From NCBI GenBank assembly GCA_964540475.1, contig CAZIMC010000002.1, positions 6,709-70,708 on the forward strand: DNA of 64,000 nucleotides. Reading direction: 5' to 3'. The position numbers and the translations under genes are program-made. Source of the DNA: an uncultured Gammaproteobacteria bacterium. Its GTDB lineage: Bacteria > Patescibacteriota > Microgenomatia > UBA8517. Below the pieces are notes generated by a model. The model worked only from the letters and a program-made list of their open reading frames with translations. It did not search any database and was not told the DNA's origin. Positions 5,166-63,232 of this stretch are shown here, one piece after another; positions within the stretch are counted from its first letter, which is position 1, and each line of letters begins with the position of its first letter.

Positions 5166-5721
5166 TTATTATTGTCAGGCACGAATTACACAGATTACAC
5201 TGCTTATACCATTAAAAATTGACGGCTTAGTTATGTCAATGGTATTTTACACGCACGGGGCTAGCTTGGACTAATTACTGTTTTCATGCATCCTTATAAC
5301 ACAATTACCGCATAAATGTCACGCACGAGTAGGCTATTTTTACCATGACAGATTCGTCCTATAAGAACGTAAGATTGCAAAAGTGAGCTAATGTTTTCGT
5401 GCCTATTTCTACCATTGCGGAATATTGCGGTAAATGATTTCCGCAGGCATGTTGAAGCTGCAATCCGATAGCTATGCTACTAATTGGTGTGCTAAAGTGT
5501 AATTAGCAGACTGCTAATTTGAGTGATAGGAATTTTAACCAGTATTTTGGCCCGTGTGGTGGGCTATTTGTATTGCTGCTAGTTACTTATATTTTATTAC
5601 ACTAAAGACGTTTGCTTGAAGAGTTTACAGAACCTGGCTACTGGTCAAATAGTCACTATAATTGCTATTATTATTTTAATCCAGGCTCTACACTTTCTAA
5701 TTGCCAGCTAATAATCATACT

Positions 5722-5729
5722 TGTATAAT
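5722..5729 (+). promoter_or_regulatory. Extended -10 (TGtTATAAT) 8 nt upstream of the leuS ATG, suggesting a leaderless or near-leaderless leuS transcript.
   Basis: tgtataat at 5722-5729 and ATG at 5738. No SD sequence lies between them. Confidence 0.3.
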
Positions 5730-5737
5730 TTACAAGT

Positions 5738-8659
5738 ATGGTGAGCAAAAATATTACCTACGATCATAGGTCAGTTGAGGCTAGATGGCGGGATTACTGG
5801 GACAATTCAGGACTATACAAAACTGATCTGAATGCTTCGAGGGGACGTTTTTACAATTTATGGATGTTCCCGTATCCTTCCGGGGAGGGTCTACATGCCG
5901 GGCACGCTTTTGCTTCAACAGGTAGCGACATTTACGGCCGTTTTATGAGAATGAAAGGTAGAGAAGTGTTTCAGCCAATCGGCTACGACTCATTTGGCAT
6001 TCATTCTGAAAATTTTGCGATCAAGACAGGTGAAACGCCTCAAATAATGCTTACACGCACAACTAAGCACTACGAAGCACAGTTAAGAAGCCTGGGCCAC
6101 GGCTATGATTGGAGTAGAGTGTTGAGTACTTCTGATATAGATTATTATAAATGGACACAGTGGCTATTTGTCGAAATGTTTAAGGCTGGCCTTGCATACA
6201 AGAAAAAAGCTAGCGTTAATTATTGTCCTTCGTGCAAGACGGTGTTGGCAGACGAGCAGGTAATGACGCCAAAGCAGGCTGGGAAAGAACCCAAAGACGC
6301 AAGGGGTAATAGGGTTTCTGGAACTGATGATACCCGAGTTTGCGAGCGATGTGGTACGGTGGTCCAAAAAAAAGAATTGGATCAGTGGTTTTTTAGGATT
6401 ACCGACTATGCAGACCGGCTACTTTCTGGTTTAGATAAAATTGATTGGAGCGAGCGCGTTAAGATTGCTCAAAGAGAGTGGATAGGGCGGTCCGAGGGGC
6501 TTCGGATCCAATTCCAAATTACAAATTCCAAATTACAAATTCCGGTGTGGACTAAGTTTTGGGAAACAATATATGGGGCTACTTTTCTGGTTGTTGCACC
6601 CGAATACGCACAAAACGAGCTTGTCCACTTGATTCCCCAGGAAAATAAAAAGAAAGTTCTTGAATATATCAAAATGTCTCTTAGTAAGTCAGAACAGCGG
6701 AGGAAAGAAGAGGCAAAAGAAAAAACCGGAGTGTTTACAGGAATTTACGCTGTAAATCCGGCAAATGGTCAAAAGATCCCTGTTTGGGTTACCGACTATG
6801 TGTTATTGGGTGTTGGAACGGGTGCTGTAATGGGAGTTCCTGCGCACGACAAGCGCGACTTTGAATTTGCAAGAAAATTCAACTTGAGACTTCTCCCTGT
6901 TGTCAAACCTAAAGATAGCGCATATAGAAGCTATTTGATGGGTGCAAAAGATATATCAGATAAAGATCTGGAAGATATCAAAGTAATGCTTGTCGAGACC
7001 GATAAAGACGGAGACAAAAAGCTTATCATACCTTCGGATTCACTTGCTGAATATAAAAAGCTTATAAAAGAGAAGTTAGACTTTGGATTTTGGAATGAAG
7101 TGGTGGGAGATACTGTATGGTTTTGCTTTAAAGATAAAACTGGTAATACAACAGAATATATATTATCAGAAAATAATATGTCAGAAATTGCTAAAAAATG
7201 TTCTGAGTTTAACAACGATCCGCTTGAAAAAACAGAGAACCTGTGGCTCTATTTAGCAGAGAATGATTGGTATCAGCCACTCATTGTTCAAGAAAATGGC
7301 GGGGAGTTAATTAACTCAGGGCGGTTTGATGGCATGTCCGCCTGGGGAGAGGGTAAGAAAAAGATGGCTGAGTGGATGATTAAGGAAAGTTTTGCCGAGT
7401 GGAGCACGACTTACCATTTACGAGATTGGTTAGTAAGCAGACAGCGCTACTGGGGGCCTCCGATTCCAATGATCTACTGCCCGAAATGCGCCAAGGAGGG
7501 CAGGAGCTGGCTTAGTCAAAATGAAGCTAACGTTAGGAAAGATCAGACAGACTGGACTCATGCGGGTTGGTACCCTGAAGAAAATTTACCTGTCATCTTG
7601 CCAGAAATGGATAACTATCAGCCCTTAGGTACCGGCAAAAGTCCTTTGGCATCTGTGCCTGATTTTTATGAGGCTAAATGTCCTTACTGTGATGGCGATG
7701 CTACTCGCGAGACAGATGTTTCAGATACATTTGTTGATTCCGCGTGGTATTTCTTAAGATATCCGAGTGTTAATGCAGAAAGTAATAGTAAATTACCCTT
7801 TGATCCAGGAATAACAAAGAAATGGTTACCAGTTTCACTATACTTTGGCGGTGCCGAACATTCAGTGCTGCATTTGATGTATGCCCGTTTTGTAACAATG
7901 ATGCTTTATGATTTGAAGCTAGTTGATTTCGAGGAGCCTTTCCCGAAGTTTTTTGCCCACGGTTTAATGATCAAGGACGGTGCAAAGATGAGTAAATCCA
8001 GAGGAAATGTGGTTAACCCGGATGAGTATATTGAAAAATATGGCGCAGACACCTTGAGACTTTACACCATGTTTATGGGGCCAATGGATGGATATCCGGA
8101 TTTTCGTGACAGTGGGATTGAGGGCATGAGGAGATTTATTAATAAGGTTTATAAACTTTTCGGTGAAGCATTGGTGGAGGAAGAAGCGAATGAAGTAATC
8201 ACAAAACTGCATCAAACCATAAAAAAGACTACCGAAGATATTCAAGGTTTTAGATACAATACCGCAATTGCGTCAATTATGGAATTGGTAAATCTTATCC
8301 AGGTCAAAGGTACTTCAGAAAATACACTAAATGTACTAGCCAGACTCCTGGCGCCATTCACCCCGCACTTAGCCGAGGAATTATGGCAAGAAGTGTTGAA
8401 GCAGAGCGGGTCAGTTCACAATGCAAGCTGGCCAGAACACAATCCTGAATTGATAAATGTGGATCAAGTTGAGCTTGTAGTTCAGGTAGACGGAAAAGTT
8501 CGTGCCCAATTAATGGTAGGCATTAATCATTCCAAGGATCGTGACTTTGTATTCGATTTAGCCAGAAGGGAGCCTAAAGTCGTTAAATGGCTAGAGGGTA
8601 AAGAGGTCAAAGATGAGATATTTATTCCTGAAAAGCTCATTAACTTTGTTACTAAATAA
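5738..8659 (+). CDS. leuS: Leucyl-tRNA synthetase
   Basis: HAGH (HIGH) motif near the N-terminus and KMSKS motif (KMSKSRGN), 973 aa, class I LeuS architecture with editing insertion. Confidence 0.95.
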   Translation: MVSKNITYDHRSVEARWRDYWDNSGLYKTDLNASRGRFYNLWMFPYPSGEGLHAGHAFASTGSDIYGRFMRMKGREVFQPIGYDSFGIHSENFAIKTGETPQIMLTRTTKHYEAQLRSLGHGYDWSRVLSTSDIDYYKWTQWLFVEMFKAGLAYKKKASVNYCPSCKTVLADEQVMTPKQAGKEPKDARGNRVSGTDDTRVCERCGTVVQKKELDQWFFRITDYADRLLSGLDKIDWSERVKIAQREWIGRSEGLRIQFQITNSKLQIPVWTKFWETIYGATFLVVAPEYAQNELVHLIPQENKKKVLEYIKMSLSKSEQRRKEEAKEKTGVFTGIYAVNPANGQKIPVWVTDYVLLGVGTGAVMGVPAHDKRDFEFARKFNLRLLPVVKPKDSAYRSYLMGAKDISDKDLEDIKVMLVETDKDGDKKLIIPSDSLAEYKKLIKEKLDFGFWNEVVGDTVWFCFKDKTGNTTEYILSENNMSEIAKKCSEFNNDPLEKTENLWLYLAENDWYQPLIVQENGGELINSGRFDGMSAWGEGKKKMAEWMIKESFAEWSTTYHLRDWLVSRQRYWGPPIPMIYCPKCAKEGRSWLSQNEANVRKDQTDWTHAGWYPEENLPVILPEMDNYQPLGTGKSPLASVPDFYEAKCPYCDGDATRETDVSDTFVDSAWYFLRYPSVNAESNSKLPFDPGITKKWLPVSLYFGGAEHSVLHLMYARFVTMMLYDLKLVDFEEPFPKFFAHGLMIKDGAKMSKSRGNVVNPDEYIEKYGADTLRLYTMFMGPMDGYPDFRDSGIEGMRRFINKVYKLFGEALVEEEANEVITKLHQTIKKTTEDIQGFRYNTAIASIMELVNLIQVKGTSENTLNVLARLLAPFTPHLAEELWQEVLKQSGSVHNASWPEHNPELINVDQVELVVQVDGKVRAQLMVGINHSKDRDFVFDLARREPKVVKWLEGKEVKDEIFIPEKLINFVTK
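6509..6544 (+). repeat. In-frame tandem repeat (about 14-nt unit caaattccaaatta x2.5) inside leuS, encoding IQFQITNSKLQIP.
   Basis: ccaattccaaattacaaattccaaattacaaattcc read directly from the sequence. Confidence 0.8.
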
Positions 8660-23020: not shown

Positions 23021-23239
23021 ATGGACGAAAATAAAAAGAAAAAAGTACGGCTTGAGGACCTTCCAGACCTTTTGACAGTTCGTGAGGTCTCAGACCTGCT
23101 CCGAGTATCTCCGCTCACAATAAAAAGATGGGGAAAACGCGGCAAACTTCCCGCAATTCGAATAAATTCTAGGGGCGACAGAAGATACAAGAAAGAGGCA
23201 GTACTTTGGCTTCTCGGAATGCAAGAAAAATCTTCTTAA
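23021..23239 (+). CDS. Excisionase-family / AlpA-like helix-turn-helix DNA-binding protein (72 aa). No integrase is nearby.
   Basis: LTVREVSDLLRVSPLTIKRWGKRGKLPAIRI fits the HTH_17/excisionase DNA-binding domain pattern. Confidence 0.65.
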   Translation: MDENKKKKVRLEDLPDLLTVREVSDLLRVSPLTIKRWGKRGKLPAIRINSRGDRRYKKEAVLWLLGMQEKSS

Positions 23240-23282
23240 ACGATTTTTGTTTTCTCGCTGCTATTTTGATAATATATTATTG

Positions 23283-23563
23283 TTGACAGCTAAATAAATG
23301 CGTTAATATCGGAGTCGCGATCCGAGAGCAGCGGTAATAAATAACCGACGGATGCAAACCGTAAAAAGTTGCTAGAGTGTGTCGGAAACGGAGCACTCGA
23401 AATAATTGAGGGTTTAGCCCGCGTTTCGAGTCCCGCTTAGGCGGGTTTTTTAATGGGATAAACTAATAAAGGGTGGTACCGCACGTAAGAAGTGCCCCTT
23501 CAACGGCTTAAATAATTAGGCAGTTGGAGGGGCTTTTTTGTTGCCTTAAAGGGAGTATGTTAG
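23283..23563 (+). promoter_or_regulatory. Structured non-coding leader element L1. It has a sigma70-like promoter, a hairpin containing GCAAACC, two tandem intrinsic terminators and a GGTGGTACCGC box. It is a paralog of 25620..25911.
   Basis: TTGACA 23283-23288 and TAATAT 23304-23309. Terminator cccgcttaggcggg+U6 at 23432-23451. Terminator gccccttcaac...gttggaggggc+U6 at 23494-23538. ATG at 23564. Confidence 0.55.
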
Positions 23564-24385
23564 ATGGAAAGAGAAACAACAAGAACAGAATATGCAAACC
23601 AGGACTTATGGTCATTGATGGAATCTTCATGGCCGGGAGCCGTTGTAAAGAATAAGGAAAATTTTAAATTTGGACCAGTATCTAATGTATGCATTGTACT
23701 CTGTCCTTTATACAAAAAAGGCGATATTAAGAGAACCGACATTCTTGATGTCGGTGAGAGCTTGGAAGAATCGCGGGTTTTTGGTAAGACGAAAGCATAT
23801 GAAGCTGCTTTACGAGCGTTGAGTTTTTCTTTACAAAAAACGAGCTCGTCGTTAAGGGTGAATTTTGTTATTGCCAACAAAGGAGTTTTGCTTGAAAGAA
23901 ACCCTGTTGCTGAAGATTACGAAAAGCTTAAGTACCACAACGAACTTTATACCAGATTGATTGACGAATGGGCTCAAATAATGGGATTTGAGTATATCTT
24001 GACTGATTATTTTGAGAGAGGGATTGATTTCCCAGAGTTTGTGAGGGTGACCCAAAAGATCCCGAAAAATACTGAACACAGTGAAGATATCAATAAAAAT
24101 GAACCCTTTTTGCTGATAGAATATCTTAATAGATATCTGAAGCCAGTTGAGCTGATTCAAAACAATGGCAATAATAGGCATGTTGCAAAAAGTCTCATTA
24201 AGGCGTTCGGATTGAATGCAGCCTTTTGGCTGACTGCCGGATATTTGGTATTTGACCATAAAATCCCCGAAATCATTGGAGAAAATGGAATTTACATTGT
24301 GTCGGAGAGATTTGACCCTTTATATTCCATTGTTAAGTTTACACCAAACCTTGAGAAACTAACCAGAATCCAGTTAAAAGCATGA
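23564..24385 (+). CDS. Hypothetical protein (273 aa), no recognisable domain
   Basis: Long ORF directly downstream of the L1 leader, translationally coupled (ATGA) to the next gene. Confidence 0.6.
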   Translation: MERETTRTEYANQDLWSLMESSWPGAVVKNKENFKFGPVSNVCIVLCPLYKKGDIKRTDILDVGESLEESRVFGKTKAYEAALRALSFSLQKTSSSLRVNFVIANKGVLLERNPVAEDYEKLKYHNELYTRLIDEWAQIMGFEYILTDYFERGIDFPEFVRVTQKIPKNTEHSEDINKNEPFLLIEYLNRYLKPVELIQNNGNNRHVAKSLIKAFGLNAAFWLTAGYLVFDHKIPEIIGENGIYIVSERFDPLYSIVKFTPNLEKLTRIQLKA

Positions 24386-25170
24386 AGTTCAAATTTTTCT
24401 CATTCAACAAGATAGGGGGCACATTTTATGATAGTGAGTCAGGAAGTAAAACCTTGGTTATTTATGCCATGGGGGCACCGACAGTGCCTGACAATGGCAC
24501 GCTTACCATCGCACCTTATATTTTAGATAAGAAAATTGACTTGTTTGTTCCCGATTATATTGGATTTGGCAGAAGCTATGGAAAGTTTACTCCGAAAGGT
24601 TGCATTCGAACACTCCTCCTTCTTTATAACAGTTTTAAGAGAGGGGTGTTTGGGGTCAATCATTATGAGCTTGAGAAAAGGTTTTTCAAATACAAAAGAA
24701 TAATTTTTGTAGGCAAAAGCTTGGGTGCTGTTTATGTTGTCCTCCTTCCAAAATATAAAAGGGAAATTAAGGAGATTGGAATATTTTGTGGGTCTATGGA
24801 TCAAAGCGAGCAAGGGAAAATTAAAGGTGAAGAAAGCAATAAGAGTTTTATTGAAGGCCTCTCAAAGGATTTTACCTTCTTATACAGGGGAATGAATCCC
24901 GGCATTTGGTGGAAGCATGTTGAGGATGGGGATGGACTATCGCCAATGGATAATATAGGTTATCTCGAGAATACAAGGGTTTTTATCGCTCATGGCGCAA
25001 AAGATACATGTGTTCATTACTCAAAATCAGTAAAATTTTACGAAAAGTTAGTGAAAACATTTCCCAACAAAGTATCCAGTTTTAAGCTTAGACTTTACAG
25101 AAATGGTGACCACGGAGCCTCTACCACAGACAACGCGATTAATGATTTTCTTAAGTGGATTTCAGTTTAA
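24382..25170 (+). CDS. Alpha/beta-hydrolase fold protein
   Basis: Nucleophile elbow GKSLG, downstream acidic and HG motifs (FIAHGAKD, NGDHG). 262 aa. Confidence 0.6.
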   Translation: MKFKFFSFNKIGGTFYDSESGSKTLVIYAMGAPTVPDNGTLTIAPYILDKKIDLFVPDYIGFGRSYGKFTPKGCIRTLLLLYNSFKRGVFGVNHYELEKRFFKYKRIIFVGKSLGAVYVVLLPKYKREIKEIGIFCGSMDQSEQGKIKGEESNKSFIEGLSKDFTFLYRGMNPGIWWKHVEDGDGLSPMDNIGYLENTRVFIAHGAKDTCVHYSKSVKFYEKLVKTFPNKVSSFKLRLYRNGDHGASTTDNAINDFLKWISV

Positions 25171-25619: not shown

Positions 25620-25911
25620 AGTTAATAGGATTGCTGAGAAGGAGCACAGTAGGTTTTTCTGGTGGCCATAGAGAGAACTGGTGGTTGGTGCAAACCAGTC
25701 GTACAGAAAAAAGCGAATTACACTCTGGAGCTGGTTTAAAGTAAATTAAACCCGGGTCGCCCGTAATAGCAAAAGGCGTGTCGCGCGAGTGATAAGCCCG
25801 AAAAGGTTAAGATGGTAACATTTTAACGAATCAAGGTGGTACCGCCTTAGAATGAAGGCCCTTGTTTGAACCTAGCATGTGGGTTCAAACAAGGGCCTTT
25901 TTTGATTTTAT
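25620..25911 (+). promoter_or_regulatory. Structured non-coding leader element L2, paralog of L1. It shares the GCAAACC-containing hairpin, the AAGGTGGTACCGCC-TTAGAA box, and a terminator hairpin of different sequence but the same position (covariation).
   Basis: ggtggtaccgcc at 25836-25847. Hairpin aaggcccttgtttgaacc...ggttcaaacaagggcctt plus U5 at 25855-25903. ATG at 25912. Confidence 0.55.
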
Positions 25912-26841
25912 ATGCCAGAAAGAATAAAAGACAAACAGGAACTGAAAGATATGTTTGTGTCTCAACCGACAATTGGGACAATTCTGCGTGTGTTGGATAA
26001 TGAAGTATACAGAAATTCGCATTTAGAAGAGCGTTTGGGATGGGTGGGAATATCTGGTAGTAAGGCTAGACATGCTGGGCTTGAAGGAAAGAACGGGGTG
26101 GTGAGTGACGAAGACTTGGTTATTATCCTAAAGGGATCTTCACAAAATGACCCATTAAACATGCAAGCTTATGAACAAGTCCTTGATTGTATTAATCAGG
26201 CAACGAAAATTATGGTTGAGGAAAAGGGTATTATTCCTGTATATGCATCAACAATCAGACTGGAAGATGCGCAAATGGCGCTTGCTAGACTGATTCATGC
26301 AAGTGGTCAGATAAGGATGATACACTCTCTAATTTATCCGTCTCCTGAGGCAGTGGTTGCGTTTGAACCGCCGCTTCTGGCACGCAATCTAGTAGGCCAA
26401 GCCCTGACTCTTTGGGGTGATGAAAGAATAGCAGAGGATGTAAACCGATCAGCCAGAAATGGTGCACGCGTAGAAAACATAAACTTGACGATAGGTGGAC
26501 TTGATGGAATCAGTGATAATTTTAGAATGCTCAGAACAAATAGACATGTCCTGCCGGCTCTATTCTTGGGCCCGCAGGCCGTGCATGTTCTTGACTACAG
26601 TGTAAAATGGGCAATGGCTCAAGTTGTAGAAAAAGCTGGTGGAGCAGAATGCGCAACTTGGGGTGAAATAATAGATAATTTTCCCTCTGAGGAGGGCGGT
26701 CAATTGTTGATAGAGGTAGTAAAAAAGATTAGACTGCTTCGGGCCCAAGAGGAACATGTCGATTTGGATGAATTAGAAAATCTATATAGAGAGGTAATTT
26801 CCTTGTGGCCACTATTTACCTCTATTAGAAGCGGAAAGTGA
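25912..26841 (+). CDS. Pol-beta-superfamily nucleotidyltransferase domain protein (309 aa). It resembles the ANT/AadA-like or CD-NTase-like GS...DxD architecture. Substrate unknown.
   Basis: GISGSKARHAGLEGKNGVVSDEDLVIIL fits the hG[GS]-x9-13-[DE]h[DE]h NTase active-site motif. Confidence 0.55.
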   Translation: MPERIKDKQELKDMFVSQPTIGTILRVLDNEVYRNSHLEERLGWVGISGSKARHAGLEGKNGVVSDEDLVIILKGSSQNDPLNMQAYEQVLDCINQATKIMVEEKGIIPVYASTIRLEDAQMALARLIHASGQIRMIHSLIYPSPEAVVAFEPPLLARNLVGQALTLWGDERIAEDVNRSARNGARVENINLTIGGLDGISDNFRMLRTNRHVLPALFLGPQAVHVLDYSVKWAMAQVVEKAGGAECATWGEIIDNFPSEEGGQLLIEVVKKIRLLRAQEEHVDLDELENLYREVISLWPLFTSIRSGK

Positions 26842-27608
26842 AGATAACTTTTCTTGGAACAGGTGGTGACGGGGGTATCCCGCAAATCAACTGCAGGTGT
26901 ATAAACTGTCGTAAAGCTCTCAATAACACCAGGCTTCGACGTTTACGTAGCTCGCTTATGGTTGTCCGAGATAGCAAAATGATAGTGATGGATTGTGGTC
27001 CAGACTTTAGACAACAGCTATTAAATGCTAATATATGGCTTAAAGATATCGCCCTTATTGTGATAACACATTTACATTTTGACCATGTAAATGGACTGAT
27101 GGAGCTGTCAACTGGAGCGCCTTATAACACCCCTTTGTATACATCAGAAAAGAACAAGAATTTACTTCTTCAAATGTCTAACATTTCATATCTTGTAAAA
27201 GCAGGATATGCCAGATTTGTTACCCCCAAGCAAGCATCGGAATTTGGAGTAAGTTTGTTTGAAATTCCGCATAGCAAAAGTTTTCCCACAAGCGCGGTAA
27301 TAGTAGCAGAGAAAGATAAGTCAGTTTGGTATTCACCGGATATATCGGATATTACACAAGAGATCAATAATAAGCTGACAAAAATGTCCCTGGTCATATT
27401 TGACTCCACTTTTTTGAATGAAGATAATCTACCAGCGCATAAGTTGGGTCACATAACCGTGGAGAATTCCTCTATAGTACTTTCCAATCTAGGAAGAAAA
27501 GTTTTGTATACACACATTAATCATACAGAGGATCAACGTGACCTAAATAGATATTTGGAAAAATTTGGATTCAGGCTTGCCCATGACATGTTATCATTAG
27601 AAGTTTGA
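26838..27608 (+). CDS. PqqB-like MBL-fold metallo-hydrolase
   Basis: N-terminal LGTGGDGGIPQINCRCINCR resembles PqqB (LGSAAGGGFPQWNCNCxNC). HxHxDH motif ITHLHFDHVNG. ATGA overlap with the NTase gene. Confidence 0.65.
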   Translation: MKITFLGTGGDGGIPQINCRCINCRKALNNTRLRRLRSSLMVVRDSKMIVMDCGPDFRQQLLNANIWLKDIALIVITHLHFDHVNGLMELSTGAPYNTPLYTSEKNKNLLLQMSNISYLVKAGYARFVTPKQASEFGVSLFEIPHSKSFPTSAVIVAEKDKSVWYSPDISDITQEINNKLTKMSLVIFDSTFLNEDNLPAHKLGHITVENSSIVLSNLGRKVLYTHINHTEDQRDLNRYLEKFGFRLAHDMLSLEV

Positions 27609-27734
27609 CAGAACGATACCCCGGGGTTTATGCAATTATTGACAAGAATGATTGGTTAGTTTATCATCACTTCAATAACTTGAATTGATAATGACAATTC
27701 TTTATACATATTTAATTTCGAAAGCGGAGAGATA

Positions 27735-27759
27735 AACGCGCCACAAGCGCGTTTTTTTT
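27735..27759 (+). terminator. Rho-independent terminator (acgcgcc-acaa-ggcgcgt plus U8) ending 5 nt before the ATG of the next gene
   Basis: aaacgcgccacaagcgcgtttttttt. Confidence 0.7.
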
Positions 27760-27764
27760 GTTTT

Positions 27765-29009
27765 ATGGCAGTTGAGATTGATATACATCCACAATCAAAC
27801 GGAGTTGTTGATAGGACGGATTGGGCTCGAGAAAACCTTCCGTTTCTTGATGCAAGAGGGGAGCTTGTTTATTTGAAGGAATGGCGAGATTCAAAAAGCT
27901 CCGCAGTGGGGTGGTTGGCAAGATGGGGTGACCCAGAAGTAAATGTTTCTGGTGGAGGTGTGCGTATGAAAATAGGTGGACAACCTCATGAAGCTGTATT
28001 TCTTGCATCAACAATGTATGAAAAATTCGGCATAGCAGGACCTCAGATTAACGGATCGAAATTTGTTATAGATTATGATCCCACTGCACCAGACAAGTTG
28101 GATGTACTGGACAGATTTCTCACAGCATTTTTGCTGGATCTTGAAAATGTGGGCACTGCTGGCGACTTAAATGTTTCTGAAAGTGAGGTGGCAGGTGTTT
28201 TGGGAAGGCACGGTATAGGCAATCCACAGCAAGGAATTCTTAAGTCCTTGGGTATTGAAGGCAACCTGGGAAGGTTGACTCAACTTATGAGAATGCCTTT
28301 TTCTGAAAGTTTTAGTCCAAAGCACAGTCACCTAATGGATGTTACGGCGGGTTGGAGCACGTACATTGCTACTGAAACGTACTTTAGAAAAATGGGTATG
28401 GATTTGCATGGTCGCACAATTGCAATTCAAGGGATAGGAGCGGTTGGGGGTAGCGCGGCTTACTTTTTCGAAAAAGCTGGCGCAAGGGTCGTTGCCGCTG
28501 CTGATGCACAAGGATCCTTCCGTATCGGCCCCGGGGGATTAACGTCTTGCCTTAGAAACATAGATACGGTAACAGGATGTGTGCCTCGAGAGAAAGGGCT
28601 AGAGGTTGCGGGAGATTCTCAGGCAATTCTTCAGATTCCAGTGGACGTTTTAGTGCTCGCTGCGAAATCGGAAGTTGTGGGCCTAGAAGAAGCAAGATGT
28701 ATACAAGCCCCGCTTATAGTAGAAGGAGCAAATCATCCCATCCTGCGTGATGCCGAAAAGTATCTCACACAGCGGGGGGTAAAAGTTTTGCCAGACTTTA
28801 TTGCTAATGCGGGCACCGCTGAATTTTTCACTATTGGTATGTTGGGAAGCGAGGAACTTTCCGAACAGGGCGTATTAGACCAGGTTGCGCAGATTACTAT
28901 AAACGCTATGACAGAAACCATTGAAACCGCTGACAATTCGGGATTAACGTATAGACAGGCAGCTCAGATAGTATCTACCAATAACTTGTGGCAGAAAGTT
29001 GTGAGATAA
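27765..29009 (+). CDS. Glu/Leu/Phe/Val-dehydrogenase-family amino-acid dehydrogenase-like protein. It is visibly more G+C-rich than its neighbours.
   Basis: Rossmann GIGAVGGSAAYFFEKAGARVVAAAD and C-terminal VLPDFIANAGTAEF resemble the family. The N-terminal catalytic Lys/GGG box is not clearly conserved. Confidence 0.55.
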   Translation: MAVEIDIHPQSNGVVDRTDWARENLPFLDARGELVYLKEWRDSKSSAVGWLARWGDPEVNVSGGGVRMKIGGQPHEAVFLASTMYEKFGIAGPQINGSKFVIDYDPTAPDKLDVLDRFLTAFLLDLENVGTAGDLNVSESEVAGVLGRHGIGNPQQGILKSLGIEGNLGRLTQLMRMPFSESFSPKHSHLMDVTAGWSTYIATETYFRKMGMDLHGRTIAIQGIGAVGGSAAYFFEKAGARVVAAADAQGSFRIGPGGLTSCLRNIDTVTGCVPREKGLEVAGDSQAILQIPVDVLVLAAKSEVVGLEEARCIQAPLIVEGANHPILRDAEKYLTQRGVKVLPDFIANAGTAEFFTIGMLGSEELSEQGVLDQVAQITINAMTETIETADNSGLTYRQAAQIVSTNNLWQKVVR

Positions 29010-29012
29010 TTT

Positions 29013-30278
29013 ATGACAAAAGAGATTTTAGCTTCCTTACTTTCTCCAGAGAGGGCTGCCACTTCCATAAATGACGCATTGACAAGGGGTGTGGTGGAAA
29101 TCTTACCCGATAGGGAGAGTTTGGAAGCTGTTATGCGTGGGAATAAAATCCGGCTTTATTTAGGAATCGATCCCACAAGCCCCGATCTTCATATTGGCCA
29201 CACAGTACCCCTTCGAAAGCTTAGGCAGTTTCAGGATCTTGGACACGATGTAATCCTTTTGTTTGGTACTTTTACTGGTATGATAGGCGATCCTACTGAC
29301 AAATCTGCTTCCAGGGTCCGACTAACTCGAGAGCAAATTGAAGGAAACGTGAGTAGTTATGCTGACCAGGCAAGTAGAATATTGGACATGTCAAAAGATG
29401 CTCCCAACCCGGTTACCATACTATATAACCACGAATGGCTGGGTGAATTGAAATTTGAACAAGTTGTAGATATTGCTTCGAATTTCACAATTTCTGAAAT
29501 GCTTGATCGATCCATGTTTCAGCGGAGGTTAGAAGAAGGTAAACCTCCCAGATTGCATGAAATTTTATATCCATTGATGCAGGGCTACGACTCTGTTGCT
29601 ATGAATGTAGATTTAGAAGTGGGAGGCAGTGACCAAACATTTAATATGCTTGTAGGGCGCGATCTAATGAAAGTTTATGGTGGAAAAGAGAAGTGGGTTA
29701 TGGCAACACGACTAATTTCTGACCCTGCTGGAAACAAGATGGGTAAAACCGAGGGAAATATTGTAAACGTTCGTGATTTGCCGGAGGTTAAATACGAAGC
29801 CATTATGTCTTGGCCAGATACTGCAATTGGTGTCGGGTTTGAGCTATTAACAAATGTTCCTATGTCAGTTGTAAAAAGAATACAAGACGAAATTTTGCCA
29901 CAATCGATTGAAGGAGGTTCTGAGATTGGCATCGTTGCATTAAAGGAGGCGTTGGCTTTTCGGGTGGTAGCTGAATTGGATGGGGAGCCTGAGGCTCGTT
30001 TTGCAATGGAGGAGTTTGATCGCGTAAAAAGAAAGAAGAAGTTCCCAAGGCGAATGAGGGAGATCAGTGTACCTCGTGGATCACTAGTTGAAGATATATT
30101 AGTTGCGTCAGGTTTAGTAAAAGATGTTGATGAAGCGAGGGCTCGCATAGCCCAAGGCTCTGTTGTCCTTGGTGAGCAGCCGGTTAGAAGGAGTATGTAT
30201 GCTAATTTTGATTCGGCGATAATCTCAATCGGTAAAAACCCTATACGCTTAATAGCGCGTGTGAACACAAAGAAATAG
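29013..30278 (+). CDS. tyrS: Tyrosyl-tRNA synthetase with C-terminal S4 domain
   Basis: GIDPTSPDLHIGHTVPL (HIGH), GDPTDKS, KMGKTEGN (KMSKS). 421 aa. Confidence 0.9.
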   Translation: MTKEILASLLSPERAATSINDALTRGVVEILPDRESLEAVMRGNKIRLYLGIDPTSPDLHIGHTVPLRKLRQFQDLGHDVILLFGTFTGMIGDPTDKSASRVRLTREQIEGNVSSYADQASRILDMSKDAPNPVTILYNHEWLGELKFEQVVDIASNFTISEMLDRSMFQRRLEEGKPPRLHEILYPLMQGYDSVAMNVDLEVGGSDQTFNMLVGRDLMKVYGGKEKWVMATRLISDPAGNKMGKTEGNIVNVRDLPEVKYEAIMSWPDTAIGVGFELLTNVPMSVVKRIQDEILPQSIEGGSEIGIVALKEALAFRVVAELDGEPEARFAMEEFDRVKRKKKFPRRMREISVPRGSLVEDILVASGLVKDVDEARARIAQGSVVLGEQPVRRSMYANFDSAIISIGKNPIRLIARVNTKK

Positions 30279-55296: not shown

Positions 55297-55431
55297 TTAT
55301 CATATTGGCAGGTAGTAAAGCAGTAAGTTGATAATGTTGAGGCAAGCCTGCTTACGCAGGCAGGAATACGCCTTAAAAAACTATTCCATCTTGGCACTAT
55401 CGAACCTAAGCTCAAAGCACAAGTTTTCGTG

Positions 55432-55516
55432 TGCTGGGGGAAGGATTCGAACCTTCGTAGCCCTTTCGAGCGACAGTTTTACAGACTGTTGCAATTGTCC
55501 ACTCTGCCACCCCAGC
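55432..55516 (-). tRNA. tRNA-Tyr (GTA) with long variable arm
   Basis: Acceptor GCTGGGG/CCCCAGC, anticodon loop CTGTAAA, long variable arm, T-loop TTCGAAT. Confidence 0.7.
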
Positions 55517-61603: not shown

Positions 61604-63232
61604 ATGCAGACCTTAGGGACAACCAATAAAGGAGGATGGCTTTCATGGTTCTTAAGGGGTGTTTTGTTTCTGGGTTTTATTATACTGGTTGGCAGACTTG
61701 GTGAACTTCAAATAATAAAGGGAGAGTATTATAAAAACCTATCTGAGGGTAACCGTGTAAGAAGAGTTCCTCTACCTGCCCCGAGGGGTCAAATTCTGGC
61801 ACGAGGCGGCGAGGTATTAGTTGGGAACACGAAAGTAATGAGTAGAGTTAAATATGATCCGGCCAGGGGATATGAATTAACAGATGATTTGGCAGAAGCA
61901 AGCGACGACGAAATAATTATTGATTGGTCGCGGGATTACAAATTGGGAGACGCAGCCGCACACGTAACCGGGTATTTGGGGGCGGTTTCAGAAAAAGAAG
62001 TTGGGAAAGTTGATCCATTATGTCCCGACAAAGGTCCACGTAAAGCATATTCCCTGGTGGGCAGAATGGGGTTGGAAGAAAAATATAATTGTTTATTATC
62101 AGGGGTAGATGGAGAGGAACTTATAGAGGTTGATACTGTGGGGAGAAAGGTGCGAACCATTGGGAGGAGAGACCCATTACCAGGTGCTGATATACGTGTA
62201 GCCATTGATGCTGGGTTACAAGAGACTGCATATAAGAGTTTGGAAGGAAGGAAGGGTGCTGTGGTTATAACTACTCCTAGAGGAGAAGTGATCGCGTTAG
62301 TTTCATCCCCTTCATTTGATCCTAACGAATTCAGCCGTAGGCCTGATGCCAATAAGGTCGCAGAAATTTTTGAGAATAAAGATTTACCGCTTTTTAATAG
62401 GGCAATAGGTGGCCTTTATCACCCTGGATCTGTTTTTAAGCCGGTAGTAAGCATTGCTGCCCTTGAAGAGGGTAAGATTAGTAGGGATTTTATATATCAT
62501 GATACAGGGATTATTACAGTTAATGATTTCTCTTATACGAACTGGTATTTAACACAGTATGGTGGAGTGGAGGGTGATATAGAACTAACTCGTGCACTTG
62601 CACGTTCAACAGATACATTTTTTTACAAAGTGGGTGAATTTTTGGGACCTAATAAACTAGCAGAGTGGTCTAGCAAGTTTGGCTTTGGTAAAAAGACTGG
62701 CATAGATATACCGGGGGAGGTTTTTGGTCTAGTACCTTCACCTGAATGGAAGCGGGAAGTTAAAAAAGAAAACTGGTTTTTGGGTAACACATACCATTAC
62801 GCTATTGGGCAAGGGGATTTGGCTGTGACGCCACTTGAAGTGAATATGGCAATTGCTTCTTTGGCTTCAGGGGGCTGGTATTGCACTCCCACTTTGGTCA
62901 TTGGCGAAGCGAAAACACATTGCAATGACCTGCACATTAGTGCAGCAAATATAAATCTAGTTGAGCTAGGTATGAAAAAGGCTTGTGAGGAAGGTGGAAC
63001 CGGATTTACCTTTTTTGATTTTGAGCCGCAAGTTGCCTGTAAGACTGGAACAGCTGAAACAGATGAAGAAGGGGCAAACCATGCCTGGTTTACACTATAC
63101 GGCCCCGTCGCGGAAGGATATGAGACGGAGTTGGTTATAACCGTCTTGGTTGAAAAAGCCGGAGAAGGATCTCGGGAGGCAGGGCCTGTGGCAAGAAAAA
63201 TTATGGACTTTTGGAAATCGCGTCTTCCATGA
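61604..63232 (+). CDS. mrdA: Penicillin-binding protein 2 (class B transpeptidase)
   Basis: SVFKP (SxxK), KTGTAE (KTG). N-terminal TM plus dimerisation domain. Confidence 0.9.
   Translation: MQTLGTTNKGGWLSWFLRGVLFLGFIILVGRLGELQIIKGEYYKNLSEGNRVRRVPLPAPRGQILARGGEVLVGNTKVMSRVKYDPARGYELTDDLAEASDDEIIIDWSRDYKLGDAAAHVTGYLGAVSEKEVGKVDPLCPDKGPRKAYSLVGRMGLEEKYNCLLSGVDGEELIEVDTVGRKVRTIGRRDPLPGADIRVAIDAGLQETAYKSLEGRKGAVVITTPRGEVIALVSSPSFDPNEFSRRPDANKVAEIFENKDLPLFNRAIGGLYHPGSVFKPVVSIAALEEGKISRDFIYHDTGIITVNDFSYTNWYLTQYGGVEGDIELTRALARSTDTFFYKVGEFLGPNKLAEWSSKFGFGKKTGIDIPGEVFGLVPSPEWKREVKKENWFLGNTYHYAIGQGDLAVTPLEVNMAIASLASGGWYCTPTLVIGEAKTHCNDLHISAANINLVELGMKKACEEGGTGFTFFDFEPQVACKTGTAETDEEGANHAWFTLYGPVAEGYETELVITVLVEKAGEGSREAGPVARKIMDFWKSRLP

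Follow-up and report, generated by a model that had tools for sequence, protein, structure and literature searches.

The window, by which we mean the whole 64,000-nt stretch of DNA that was analysed, carries a two-gene operon on its forward strand (23564..25170) that encodes an uncharacterized 273-aa protein (23564-24385) and an S9-like alpha/beta hydrolase (24382-25170). Ahead of it lies a leader, here called L1, at about 23296-23539. Its GC content is enriched, as an earlier note on this DNA had remarked, but modestly (0.485 over 23300-23499 versus about 0.37–0.40 in the flanks), and its fold scores z = -3.9 against shuffles. A Shine-Dalgarno-like AGGGAG (about 23550-55) falls outside the switch, which ends in a hairpin followed by U6.

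Scanned at the Rfam gathering thresholds, the window returns one T-box leader, which is not L1 but L2 (25627-25866; RF00230, 105.4 bits), a canonical tyrosine T-box ahead of a tyrS operon that encodes an unknown 309-aa protein, an MBL-fold hydrolase, an ELFV-type dehydrogenase and TyrRS. Our reading of the Rfam alignment would make UAC (Tyr) its Specifier, and the tRNA-Tyr(GTA) encoded in the window has a discriminator, A73, that matches the L2 bulge UGGU. A third GGTGGNACC site, at 62993, was considered as a T-box and rejected, as it lies within coding sequence.

L1 itself emerges at a permissive threshold. In a search of 421 nt, RF00230 aligns end to end with 23294-23502 at 41.1 bits (E = 7.5e-08), far below the gathering score of 93 bits, and the score is low because 7 nt stand in place of 76 Stem I positions of the model. 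In the Rfam scan, which the earlier note had proposed as a check, the T-box is the only family that matches the region with a meaningful E-value. L1 belongs to a known kind, the T-box family, and not among new metabolite riboswitches or generic attenuators. It is very probably a T-box riboswitch, to judge from its sequence, that senses uncharged tRNA-Arg and controls the 273-aa protein gene (unk273) and the hydrolase gene by transcription antitermination. The earlier note had proposed riboswitch or attenuator control; a cis-acting leader with premature termination agrees with that proposal, but the ligand would be a tRNA and not a small molecule. It had also called the element at 25620..25911 a paralog of L1, which is right in so far as L2 is a related element but overstates the kinship, L2 being a canonical T-box with a long Stem I that the model of the L1 class does not match.

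The earlier note placed a promoter at TTGACA (23283-88) and TAATAT (23304-09). Both hexamers are there, but they are 15 nt apart, a promoter scan makes no call on them, and the proposed -10 element falls within the 5' strand of the conserved RNA structure, which starts at 23296. Among related leaders, 52 have strong sigma70-like promoters, and their -10 elements end 5–26 nt (mostly 14–20) upstream of the first model position and never inside the model. A likely promoter for L1, read by eye and equally without a scan call, is the extended -10 element TGaTAATAT at 23267..23275 (+), which ends 20 nt upstream of 23296 and would put the transcription start at about 23282-23290.

Related leaders and the decoding half

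A conserved-core pattern matched 18 GTDB genome contigs, nearly all of them CPR MAGs, with hosts that include Levy-, Davies- and Amesbacteria, Saccharibacteria and several genomes labelled "uncultured Gammaproteobacteria"; a relaxed pattern matched at least 120 metagenome stretches. For the decoding half we built a covariance model, R1, whose seed contains the L1 sequence, and L1's own R1 score of 93.5 bits is therefore high by construction. Within the collected loci, R1 finds 87 leaders, 78 of them distinct and, where named, nearly all from CPR/Patescibacteria MAGs; L2 is not matched. The related contig L001 carries a leader that repeats the L1 architecture down to an identical hairpin loop, GUCGCGA.

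The covariation that the earlier note had suggested looking for in relatives is present in this set. In the R1 alignment, which is fitted to the model and whose members were ascertained with an L1-derived pattern, 98.2% of cells are paired versus 27–36% in slid-partner controls, and 15 of the 23 pairs vary on both sides. The invariant Stem IIA and GNRA core carry no weight here, because the search pattern required both. For the discriminator half, in which a whole-module MAFFT alignment was too gappy in the variable helices, leaders were parsed one by one and cognate duplexes were scored against non-cognate ones. All helices modelled in L1 are fully paired.

The decoding half opens with a basal helix, P0 (23299..23330, +), in which UGC (23299-301) pairs with GCA (23328-30) and encloses Stem I. 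All three of its pairs vary on both sides over the 78 distinct leaders (one, for example, is AU in 47, UA in 13 and GU in 9), and the Rfam alignment of L1 pairs the same GC/GC. P0 occupies the position of the T-box K-turn stem, and its GA motif is degenerate in L1. Within P0 lies an ultrashort Stem I (23309..23325, +), a 5-bp hairpin of UCGGA and UCCGA whose five stem pairs all covary. Its 7-nt apical loop, GUCGCGA (23314-20), would hold the Specifier CGC (Arg) at 23316-18, followed by the purine G23319, an assignment drawn from the loop alignment and the gene context; in most class members the apical loop has 6 nt.

Stem II (23332..23347, +) is short, with CGGU and ACCG closing an A-rich 8-nt loop, AAUAAAUA, and its four basal pairs all covary. 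In L1 it has 4 bp and, by inspection, neither an S-turn nor a GAA/AGUA motif; in other members of the class, Stem II is longer and contains purine-rich internal loops. Directly behind it comes the Stem IIA/B pseudoknot (23348..23372, +), supported by the Rfam alignment and by a cognate-pairing test. Stem IIA pairs ACGG (23348-51) with CCGU (23359-62) around the loop AUGCAAA, which is the stretch that the earlier note had singled out as GCAAACC, and Stem IIB pairs GCAA (23354-57) with UUGC (23369-72); the F-box counterpart in L1 is CCGUAA, that is, the CCGU of Stem IIA followed by UAA. Stem IIA is invariant across the class, which partly reflects the search pattern. Stem IIB is free to change, and it pairs over at least 3 bp in 53 of 63 cognate combinations versus 35% of non-cognate ones, with swaps across the class such as GUC/GAC, GAC/GUC, GGA/UCC and GCC/GGC.

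The last decoding element is a class-specific GNRA-capped hairpin, GAGUGUGUCG-GAAA-CGGAGCACUC (23375..23398, +). Members cap it with a GAAA, GCAA or GUAA tetraloop, and three of its seven modelled pairs covary (one of them as CG in 45, UA in 21 and AU in 11), the core being invariant in part since the search pattern demanded it. Canonical T-boxes are without such a hairpin. The earlier note had drawn a different hairpin from these bases, CCGAC...GUCGG (23345-49/23381-85). It can be drawn, but the comparative data assign its bases to Stem II, Stem IIA and the GNRA-capped hairpin: there is covariation in the GNRA-capped hairpin and in Stem II, where it links the base on the 5' side of GACGG to its partner.

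Several parts of the best-known T-boxes were looked for in L1 and not found there, namely a long Stem I with a K-turn, an internal Specifier loop and a distal elbow platform (AG bulge and distal loop), nor could a GA motif of the K-turn or an S-turn in Stem II be made out.

Stem III, the internal hairpin T1 and the terminator switch

Between the two halves, a linker helix, P-alt (23396..23430, +), can form from CUCGAAA (23396-402) and UUUCGAG (23424-30), with 7 bp and -6.9 kcal/mol in L1; across the class, cognate P-alt duplexes average -2.84 versus -1.89 kcal/mol for non-cognate ones. We tentatively regard P-alt and Stem III as forming either a pseudoknot or alternative folds. Stem III itself is extended (23412..23463, +), and its outer helix joins GUUUA(G)CCC (23412-20) to GGG(A)UAAAC (23455-63), immediately 5' of the T-box sequence. 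Outer Stem III duplexes have a mean of -10.65 kcal/mol between cognate strands versus -4.91 kcal/mol between non-cognate ones, and in 50 of 64 leaders no more than 10% of the non-cognate partners outdo the cognate one.

At the tip of Stem III sits the first GC hairpin of the earlier note, which is indeed present and terminator-like by scan. This hairpin, T1 (CCCGC-UUAG-GCGGG, 23432-23445, +), has five G-C pairs and a 4-nt loop, folds at -9.6 kcal/mol and is followed by U6 (23446-23451). At least 64 of 77 distinct leaders keep the element, with 28 different stems and runs of U5–9, whereas about nine have a plain Stem III hairpin in its place. From the end of the T1 U-run to the T-box motif the median distance is 17 nt across the class.

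Downstream of Stem III, the conserved box of the earlier note, AAGGGTGGTACCGC at 23469-23483, is the T-box sequence. It forms the antiterminator (23470..23499, +; -8.3 kcal/mol as an explicit structure, in agreement with the Rfam alignment), built of helix A1 (AGGG 23470-73 with CCCU 23496-99), the 7-nt T-box bulge UGGUACC (23474-80) and helix A2 (GCAC 23481-84 with GUGC 23492-95). Within the bulge, UGGU (23474-77) is predicted to pair with the ACCA-3' end of the tRNA. The second terminator of the earlier note also holds up and is the regulated one: in the minimum-free-energy fold, 23494-511 pairs with 23516-33 (+) in an 18-position stem with one internal mismatch, and U6 follows at 23534-39, ending 24 nt before the ATG at 23564. 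The terminator region folds at about -34 kcal/mol versus -8.3 kcal/mol for the antiterminator. It reuses positions 23494-99 of the antiterminator's 3' strands, and the extended fold also takes 23492, so that the two folds are mutually exclusive.

Does this leader, then, hold two regulated terminators in tandem, as the earlier note proposed? Both hairpins exist, but the picture of T1 as an independent terminator with a switch of its own does not hold; the second terminator alone competes with the antiterminator, and T1 is the distal part of the extended Stem III. A more elaborate version would make T1 a separately regulated terminator, with anticodon binding relieving termination at 23446-51 and the acceptor end being sensed at 23534-39. 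The conservation of a hairpin and U5–9 through 28 different stems would fit such an arrangement, as would the likeness of T1 to a bona fide intrinsic terminator in the scan, and the adjacent P-alt could couple T1 to the decoding module. By inspection, however, neither L1 nor the class offers a consistent complement to either arm of T1, and hence no alternative pairing that would sequester one; P-alt does not overlap T1 and has weak class-wide support; T1 is absent from the leaders with a plain Stem III hairpin; and T1 is far weaker than the final terminator (class-wide medians of -9.5 versus -26.7 kcal/mol). We consider a second regulated checkpoint unlikely. T1 is more probably a pause site or leaky stop, passed before the discriminator is synthesized. 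Efficient termination at T1 would block expression.

Codon, regulated genes and rival readings

Across the class, the apical loop presents a triplet whose position is constant, preceded by a pyrimidine and in most cases followed by a purine, and we compared this triplet with the downstream genes, which were clustered and then identified with Pfam. The 48 distinct leaders with a CGC loop precede genes for ArgH-type lyase (10), ArgG (5) and ArgRS (2) and none for proline, with bulge UGGU in 44 and UGGC in 4. Conversely, the 26 distinct leaders with a CCY loop (CCC or CCU), all with UGGU, precede genes for ProRS (8), ProB (10), ProA (5), ProC (7) and ornithine cyclodeaminase (OCD, 3) and none for arginine. 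A UGG loop occurs in three distinct leaders, all with bulge UGGC; the downstream genes of this group were scanned in L058, where they encode IGPS and a TrpB-type enzyme.

Transfer RNA genes provide a further line of evidence. Genes for tRNA-Arg(UCU) stand directly behind the terminator in L051 and L102, and L065 has a tRNA-Arg(GCG) with A73 immediately behind a CGC leader whose bulge is UGGU, so that both predicted pairings are satisfied. (We assigned tRNA discriminators by acceptor-stem pairing, as automatic calls from ARAGORN ends are unreliable.) At the class level the Specifier matches the amino acid of the regulated genes, and no loop type crosses over to the genes of another amino acid. 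For L1 itself we infer this match, because the window's two genes have no assigned function. The only tRNA-Arg of the window is tRNA-Arg(CCT), and the arginine specificity of L1 rests on its relatives because the window has no tRNA-Arg that reads CGC and the operon has no argS. Given these relatives, an arginine tRNA is the most likely specificity, and we read CGC (23316-18) as the Specifier of L1 with high confidence.

The register of the triplet could be questioned. If the codon were instead GCG (Ala), at loop positions 4-6, it would be followed by the purine A and then the helix, which is canonical T-box grammar. The loops share a four-base core, C-G-C-N with N being A, G or C, or A-G-C-A in L012 and L076, and the resulting GCA, GCG and GCC are all alanine codons with a purine next; M15 (D-Ala-D-Ala dipeptidase-like) peptidases even occur in some of the operons. 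Yet these leaders precede genes for ArgG, ArgH-type lyase, ArgRS and tRNA-Arg, and no alanine gene was seen behind them. Furthermore, MAFFT aligns the CGC triplet with the unambiguous proline codons, and the loops ahead of tryptophan genes, UGG-G-A with bulge UGGC, have exactly the layout of L1 (codon, G, A, stem) and so fix the register as codon, purine and A. The match between the CGC leader of L065 and its tRNA-Arg(GCG) with A73 points the same way. Taken together, these observations make the alanine register highly improbable. A point against the arginine register is that L012 and L076 have AGC at the codon position, ahead of ArgH/ArgG.

One might also ask whether L1 is a decayed T-box remnant that lost its function along with Stem I, as its sub-threshold Rfam score, the shrinkage of 76 Stem I positions to 7 nt and the lack of argS in the window's operon could suggest. 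Decay would hardly leave what we see in the class, where the reduced architecture recurs in 87 leaders, compensatory changes run through Stem I, Stem II, P0, the GNRA hairpin, Stem III and the pseudoknot, and the codon is strictly associated with the genes. Moreover, T-boxes with a Specifier in an apical loop are experimentally established, as translational regulators (PMC10482949). We give the remnant reading very little credence. Least credible of all is a metabolite riboswitch or generic attenuator in which a ligand or leader peptide controls two tandem terminators, since the two hairpin and U-run signals in series ahead of a start codon and the structured leader would suit it, but the T-box as the sole meaningful Rfam match, the presence of T-box sequence, bulge and antiterminator/terminator pair, and loop triplets that track the amino acid of the regulated genes, as those of a metabolite aptamer would not, all stand against it.

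Mechanism, known T-boxes and the regulated genes

We propose that L1 would work as a minimal decoder, in which a 5-bp Stem I hairpin offers CGC in its apical loop without a tRNA-elbow platform and is backed by the short Stem II, the Stem IIA/B pseudoknot and the class-specific GNRA hairpin. The anticodon of tRNA-Arg (GCG or ICG) would pair with CGC, and T1 with its U6 in Stem III would serve as a pause site or leaky stop, so that the platform-less decoder has time to catch the tRNA. Once Stem III has closed, the bulge UGGU could pair with the free ACCA-3' end of an uncharged tRNA, which would stabilize the antiterminator, weak as it is at about -8 kcal/mol, in its competition with a strong terminator of about -34 kcal/mol, and permit read-through into the operon. 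With charged tRNA, the antiterminator would not be stabilized and transcription would end at 23534-39. Three parts of this scheme, tRNA binding by L1, the pausing role of T1 and the promoter, we infer.

Among known systems, the closest parallel is with the Class III ileS T-boxes of Nocardia farcinica and Mycobacterium tuberculosis (PMC10482949, PMC7583486). In these as in L1, Stem I is short and lacks the interdigitated T-loop (elbow) platform, and the Specifier lies in the apical hairpin loop (5–6 nt in Class III, 7 nt in L1); a Stem IIA/B pseudoknot comes directly after Stem II, and the discriminator has Stem III, a UGGN bulge and helices A1 and A2. They differ in readout, which is an intrinsic transcription terminator in L1 and mostly translational, by sequestration of the RBS, in Class III (PMC10482949, PMC7583486); in specificity, which is Arg, Pro and Trp for the L1 class and Ile for Class III; and in hosts, which are CPR/Patescibacteria for the former and Actinobacteria for the latter. 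Class III also has a Stem II S-turn that docks on the codon-anticodon duplex, of which none was seen in L1, whereas the L1 class has in addition a GNRA-capped hairpin after the pseudoknot and a terminator-like hairpin and U-run in Stem III.

With Class I, the Bacillus subtilis tyrS type described by RF00230 and represented here by L2, L1 has in common Stem IIA/B, the T-box sequence, a readout at the level of transcription and the antiterminator/terminator switch, as well as, at the class level, a codon that fits the regulated pathway. The fourth bulge base fits the tRNA discriminator on the related contig L065, and the class trends, UGGU in all CCY (Pro) leaders and UGGC in all UGG (Trp) leaders, agree with such a match. 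Absent from L1 is the Class I Stem I, which spans roughly 90 nt and comprises a K-turn, an internal Specifier loop, an AG bulge and a distal loop; RF00230 scores L1 at 41 bits and L2 at 105.

A comparison with glyQS bears on the role proposed for T1, as in both leaders a delay between synthesis of the decoding domain and synthesis of the discriminator would favour tRNA capture. To our knowledge, the glyQS pauses do not take the form of a conserved GC hairpin and U-run inside Stem III. They are programmed pauses that aid tRNA anchoring and are experimentally documented (PMC13001445), whereas the pause in L1 is read from its sequence. Reviews state that tRNA capture is faster with the elbow platform and that transcriptional T-boxes require it, whereas an ultrashort Stem I typifies T-boxes that act on translation (PMC7583486; PMC10482949). 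A platform-less T-box that acts by transcription termination would, if true, test the need for the elbow contact in fast tRNA capture, and the role of pausing could be tested directly in it.

In full-text searches, with most subscription journals outside their scope, no publication linking T-boxes to CPR lineages turned up. At its gathering score RF00230 misses all 18 of the class members tested, so that CPR genomes probably contain more T-box regulation than is annotated. We put forward, tentatively and with some reserve, a wider reading in which these leaders would form a previously undescribed T-box class widespread in CPR/Patescibacteria, with platform-less transcriptional control for which a T1 pause or leaky terminator, and possibly the GNRA hairpin, would compensate, and with uncharacterized genes linked to arginine and tRNA-Arg genes brought under T-box control.

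The codon in the loop could also serve as a functional label, tagging uncharacterized CPR genes as responsive to the charging of arginine tRNA. The genes so tagged include those for the 273-aa family, its partner hydrolase, a 619-aa HAD-containing protein, GNAT, M15 peptidases and PLP enzymes. The pair of 273-aa protein and hydrolase genes recurs behind the same type of leader in L001, L111, L090 and L003, and in L001 and L111, which have L1's loop type, argS follows the pair. L002 has the pair and argS behind an uncharacterised T-box-like upstream region.

The 273-aa protein has few close homologues, and its family comprises 133 representatives at 50% identity. It has no match in Pfam, in NCBIfam or in a sequence-profile search of the PDB with the family alignment, and the fusion partners of distant family members carry no Pfam domains. 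The 309-aa protein encoded by the first gene of the L2 operon was considered as a relative and set aside, as BLASTP and hhalign both gave a negative result. An AlphaFold model of the 273-aa protein is confident, with a pLDDT of 86.4 and a pTM of 0.85. Its best PDB matches are cyclodipeptide synthases of several species and TyrRS catalytic domains, all of them weak (E at best 4e-3, TM about 0.4–0.5), and the model suggests, as a lead and not an assignment, a cyclodipeptide-synthase/TyrRS-like fold.

tRNA-Arg and other genes behind CGC-class leaders

Leaders of the L1 type, with the probable Arg Specifier CGC in their apical loop (the CGC class), also precede tRNA genes. In four related contigs a tRNA-Arg gene lies directly 3' of the terminator of such a leader and before the protein genes: tRNA-Arg(UCU) at L051 1581-1655, L102 7436-7510 and L059 13479-13553, and tRNA-Arg(GCG) on the minus strand at L065 5768-5843. 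This placement suggests that tRNA genes could themselves come under T-box control. At L065, the downstream tRNA is the leader's own cognate, and its anticodon loop reads CCGCGGA, so position 33, at which U is nearly universal in tRNAs, would be C.

Further gene types found behind CGC-class leaders (L051 2766-4578, L090 10859-11902, L022 1094-2968 and L127 897-1499) encode a TrpB-type PLP enzyme, M15 (D-Ala-D-Ala dipeptidase-like) peptidases, a 619-aa HAD-containing protein with an adjoining nucleoside hydrolase, and a GNAT acetyltransferase. For none of these genes is a link to arginine obvious.

Leaders with unusual loops, extra hairpins or a divergent 5' part

Two leaders carry the loop UAGCAA, which places AGC, a Ser codon, at the position held by CGC in other leaders; one (L012, about 7796-7912) precedes an ArgH-type lyase and ArgG, the other (L076 508-623) an ArgH-type lyase, and the T-box bulge is UGGC in both. 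Some leaders have an additional hairpin 5' or 3' of the Specifier hairpin (L006, L007, L015/L084/L088, L010, L095 and L131); at L006 (6232-6300) its loop likewise shows CGC, giving two CGC loops in tandem.

The contig L002 holds the third locus in which the gene for the uncharacterized 273-aa protein found after L1 is joined by those for the S9-like hydrolase and argS. In this region (5640-5770) the T-box-like core is GAGUGGUACCGUG; it and a terminator are found some 240 nt 5' of the called start. The part upstream of the core differs from that of L1-type leaders. Rfam gave no hit for the region with an E-value of 0.01 or less, nor did R1, our covariance model of the decoding half, match it.

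The 273-aa protein and the surroundings of L1

The 273-aa protein itself (23564-24385) has no match in Pfam or NCBIfam. Its AlphaFold model is confident (pLDDT 86), and the nearest structures are cyclodipeptide synthases (CDPSs) and TyrRS catalytic domains, but these matches are weak (best E-value 4e-3; TM 0.4-0.5). The family comprises 133 representatives at 50% identity, some with C-terminal fusions to domains that lack Pfam matches, and its motif LCPLY (C47-P48) is invariant; this motif may occupy the place of the CDPS catalytic Ser.

Directly 5' of L1 lies a gene (23021-23239) whose 72-aa product is a helix-turn-helix protein of the MerR/excisionase type that resembles BldC-like proteins. 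A TTGAC(A/C) motif, seen in two sequences only (window 23283-23288; L001 about 5693-5698) and followed by a conserved UAAAUAAAUGCGUU, sits just 3' of the likely -10 element, close to the predicted transcription start.

Several contigs with the CPR-type leader (L012, L013, L017, L020, L022 and L023), one of them 784 kb long, bear the title 'uncultured Gammaproteobacteria bacterium', and these taxonomic labels may be wrong.

L2 and its tyrS operon

The second T-box of the window, L2 (25627-25866), is canonical (Rfam RF00230, 105 bits), and we read its Specifier as UAC (Tyr). The first gene of the operon behind it (25912-30278) codes for an unknown 309-aa protein; the others encode an MBL-fold hydrolase, a dehydrogenase-like protein of the ELFV (Glu/Leu/Phe/Val) type and TyrRS. 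The tRNA-Tyr(GTA) of the window (55431-55516) has the discriminator A73, which fits the L2 bulge UGGU.
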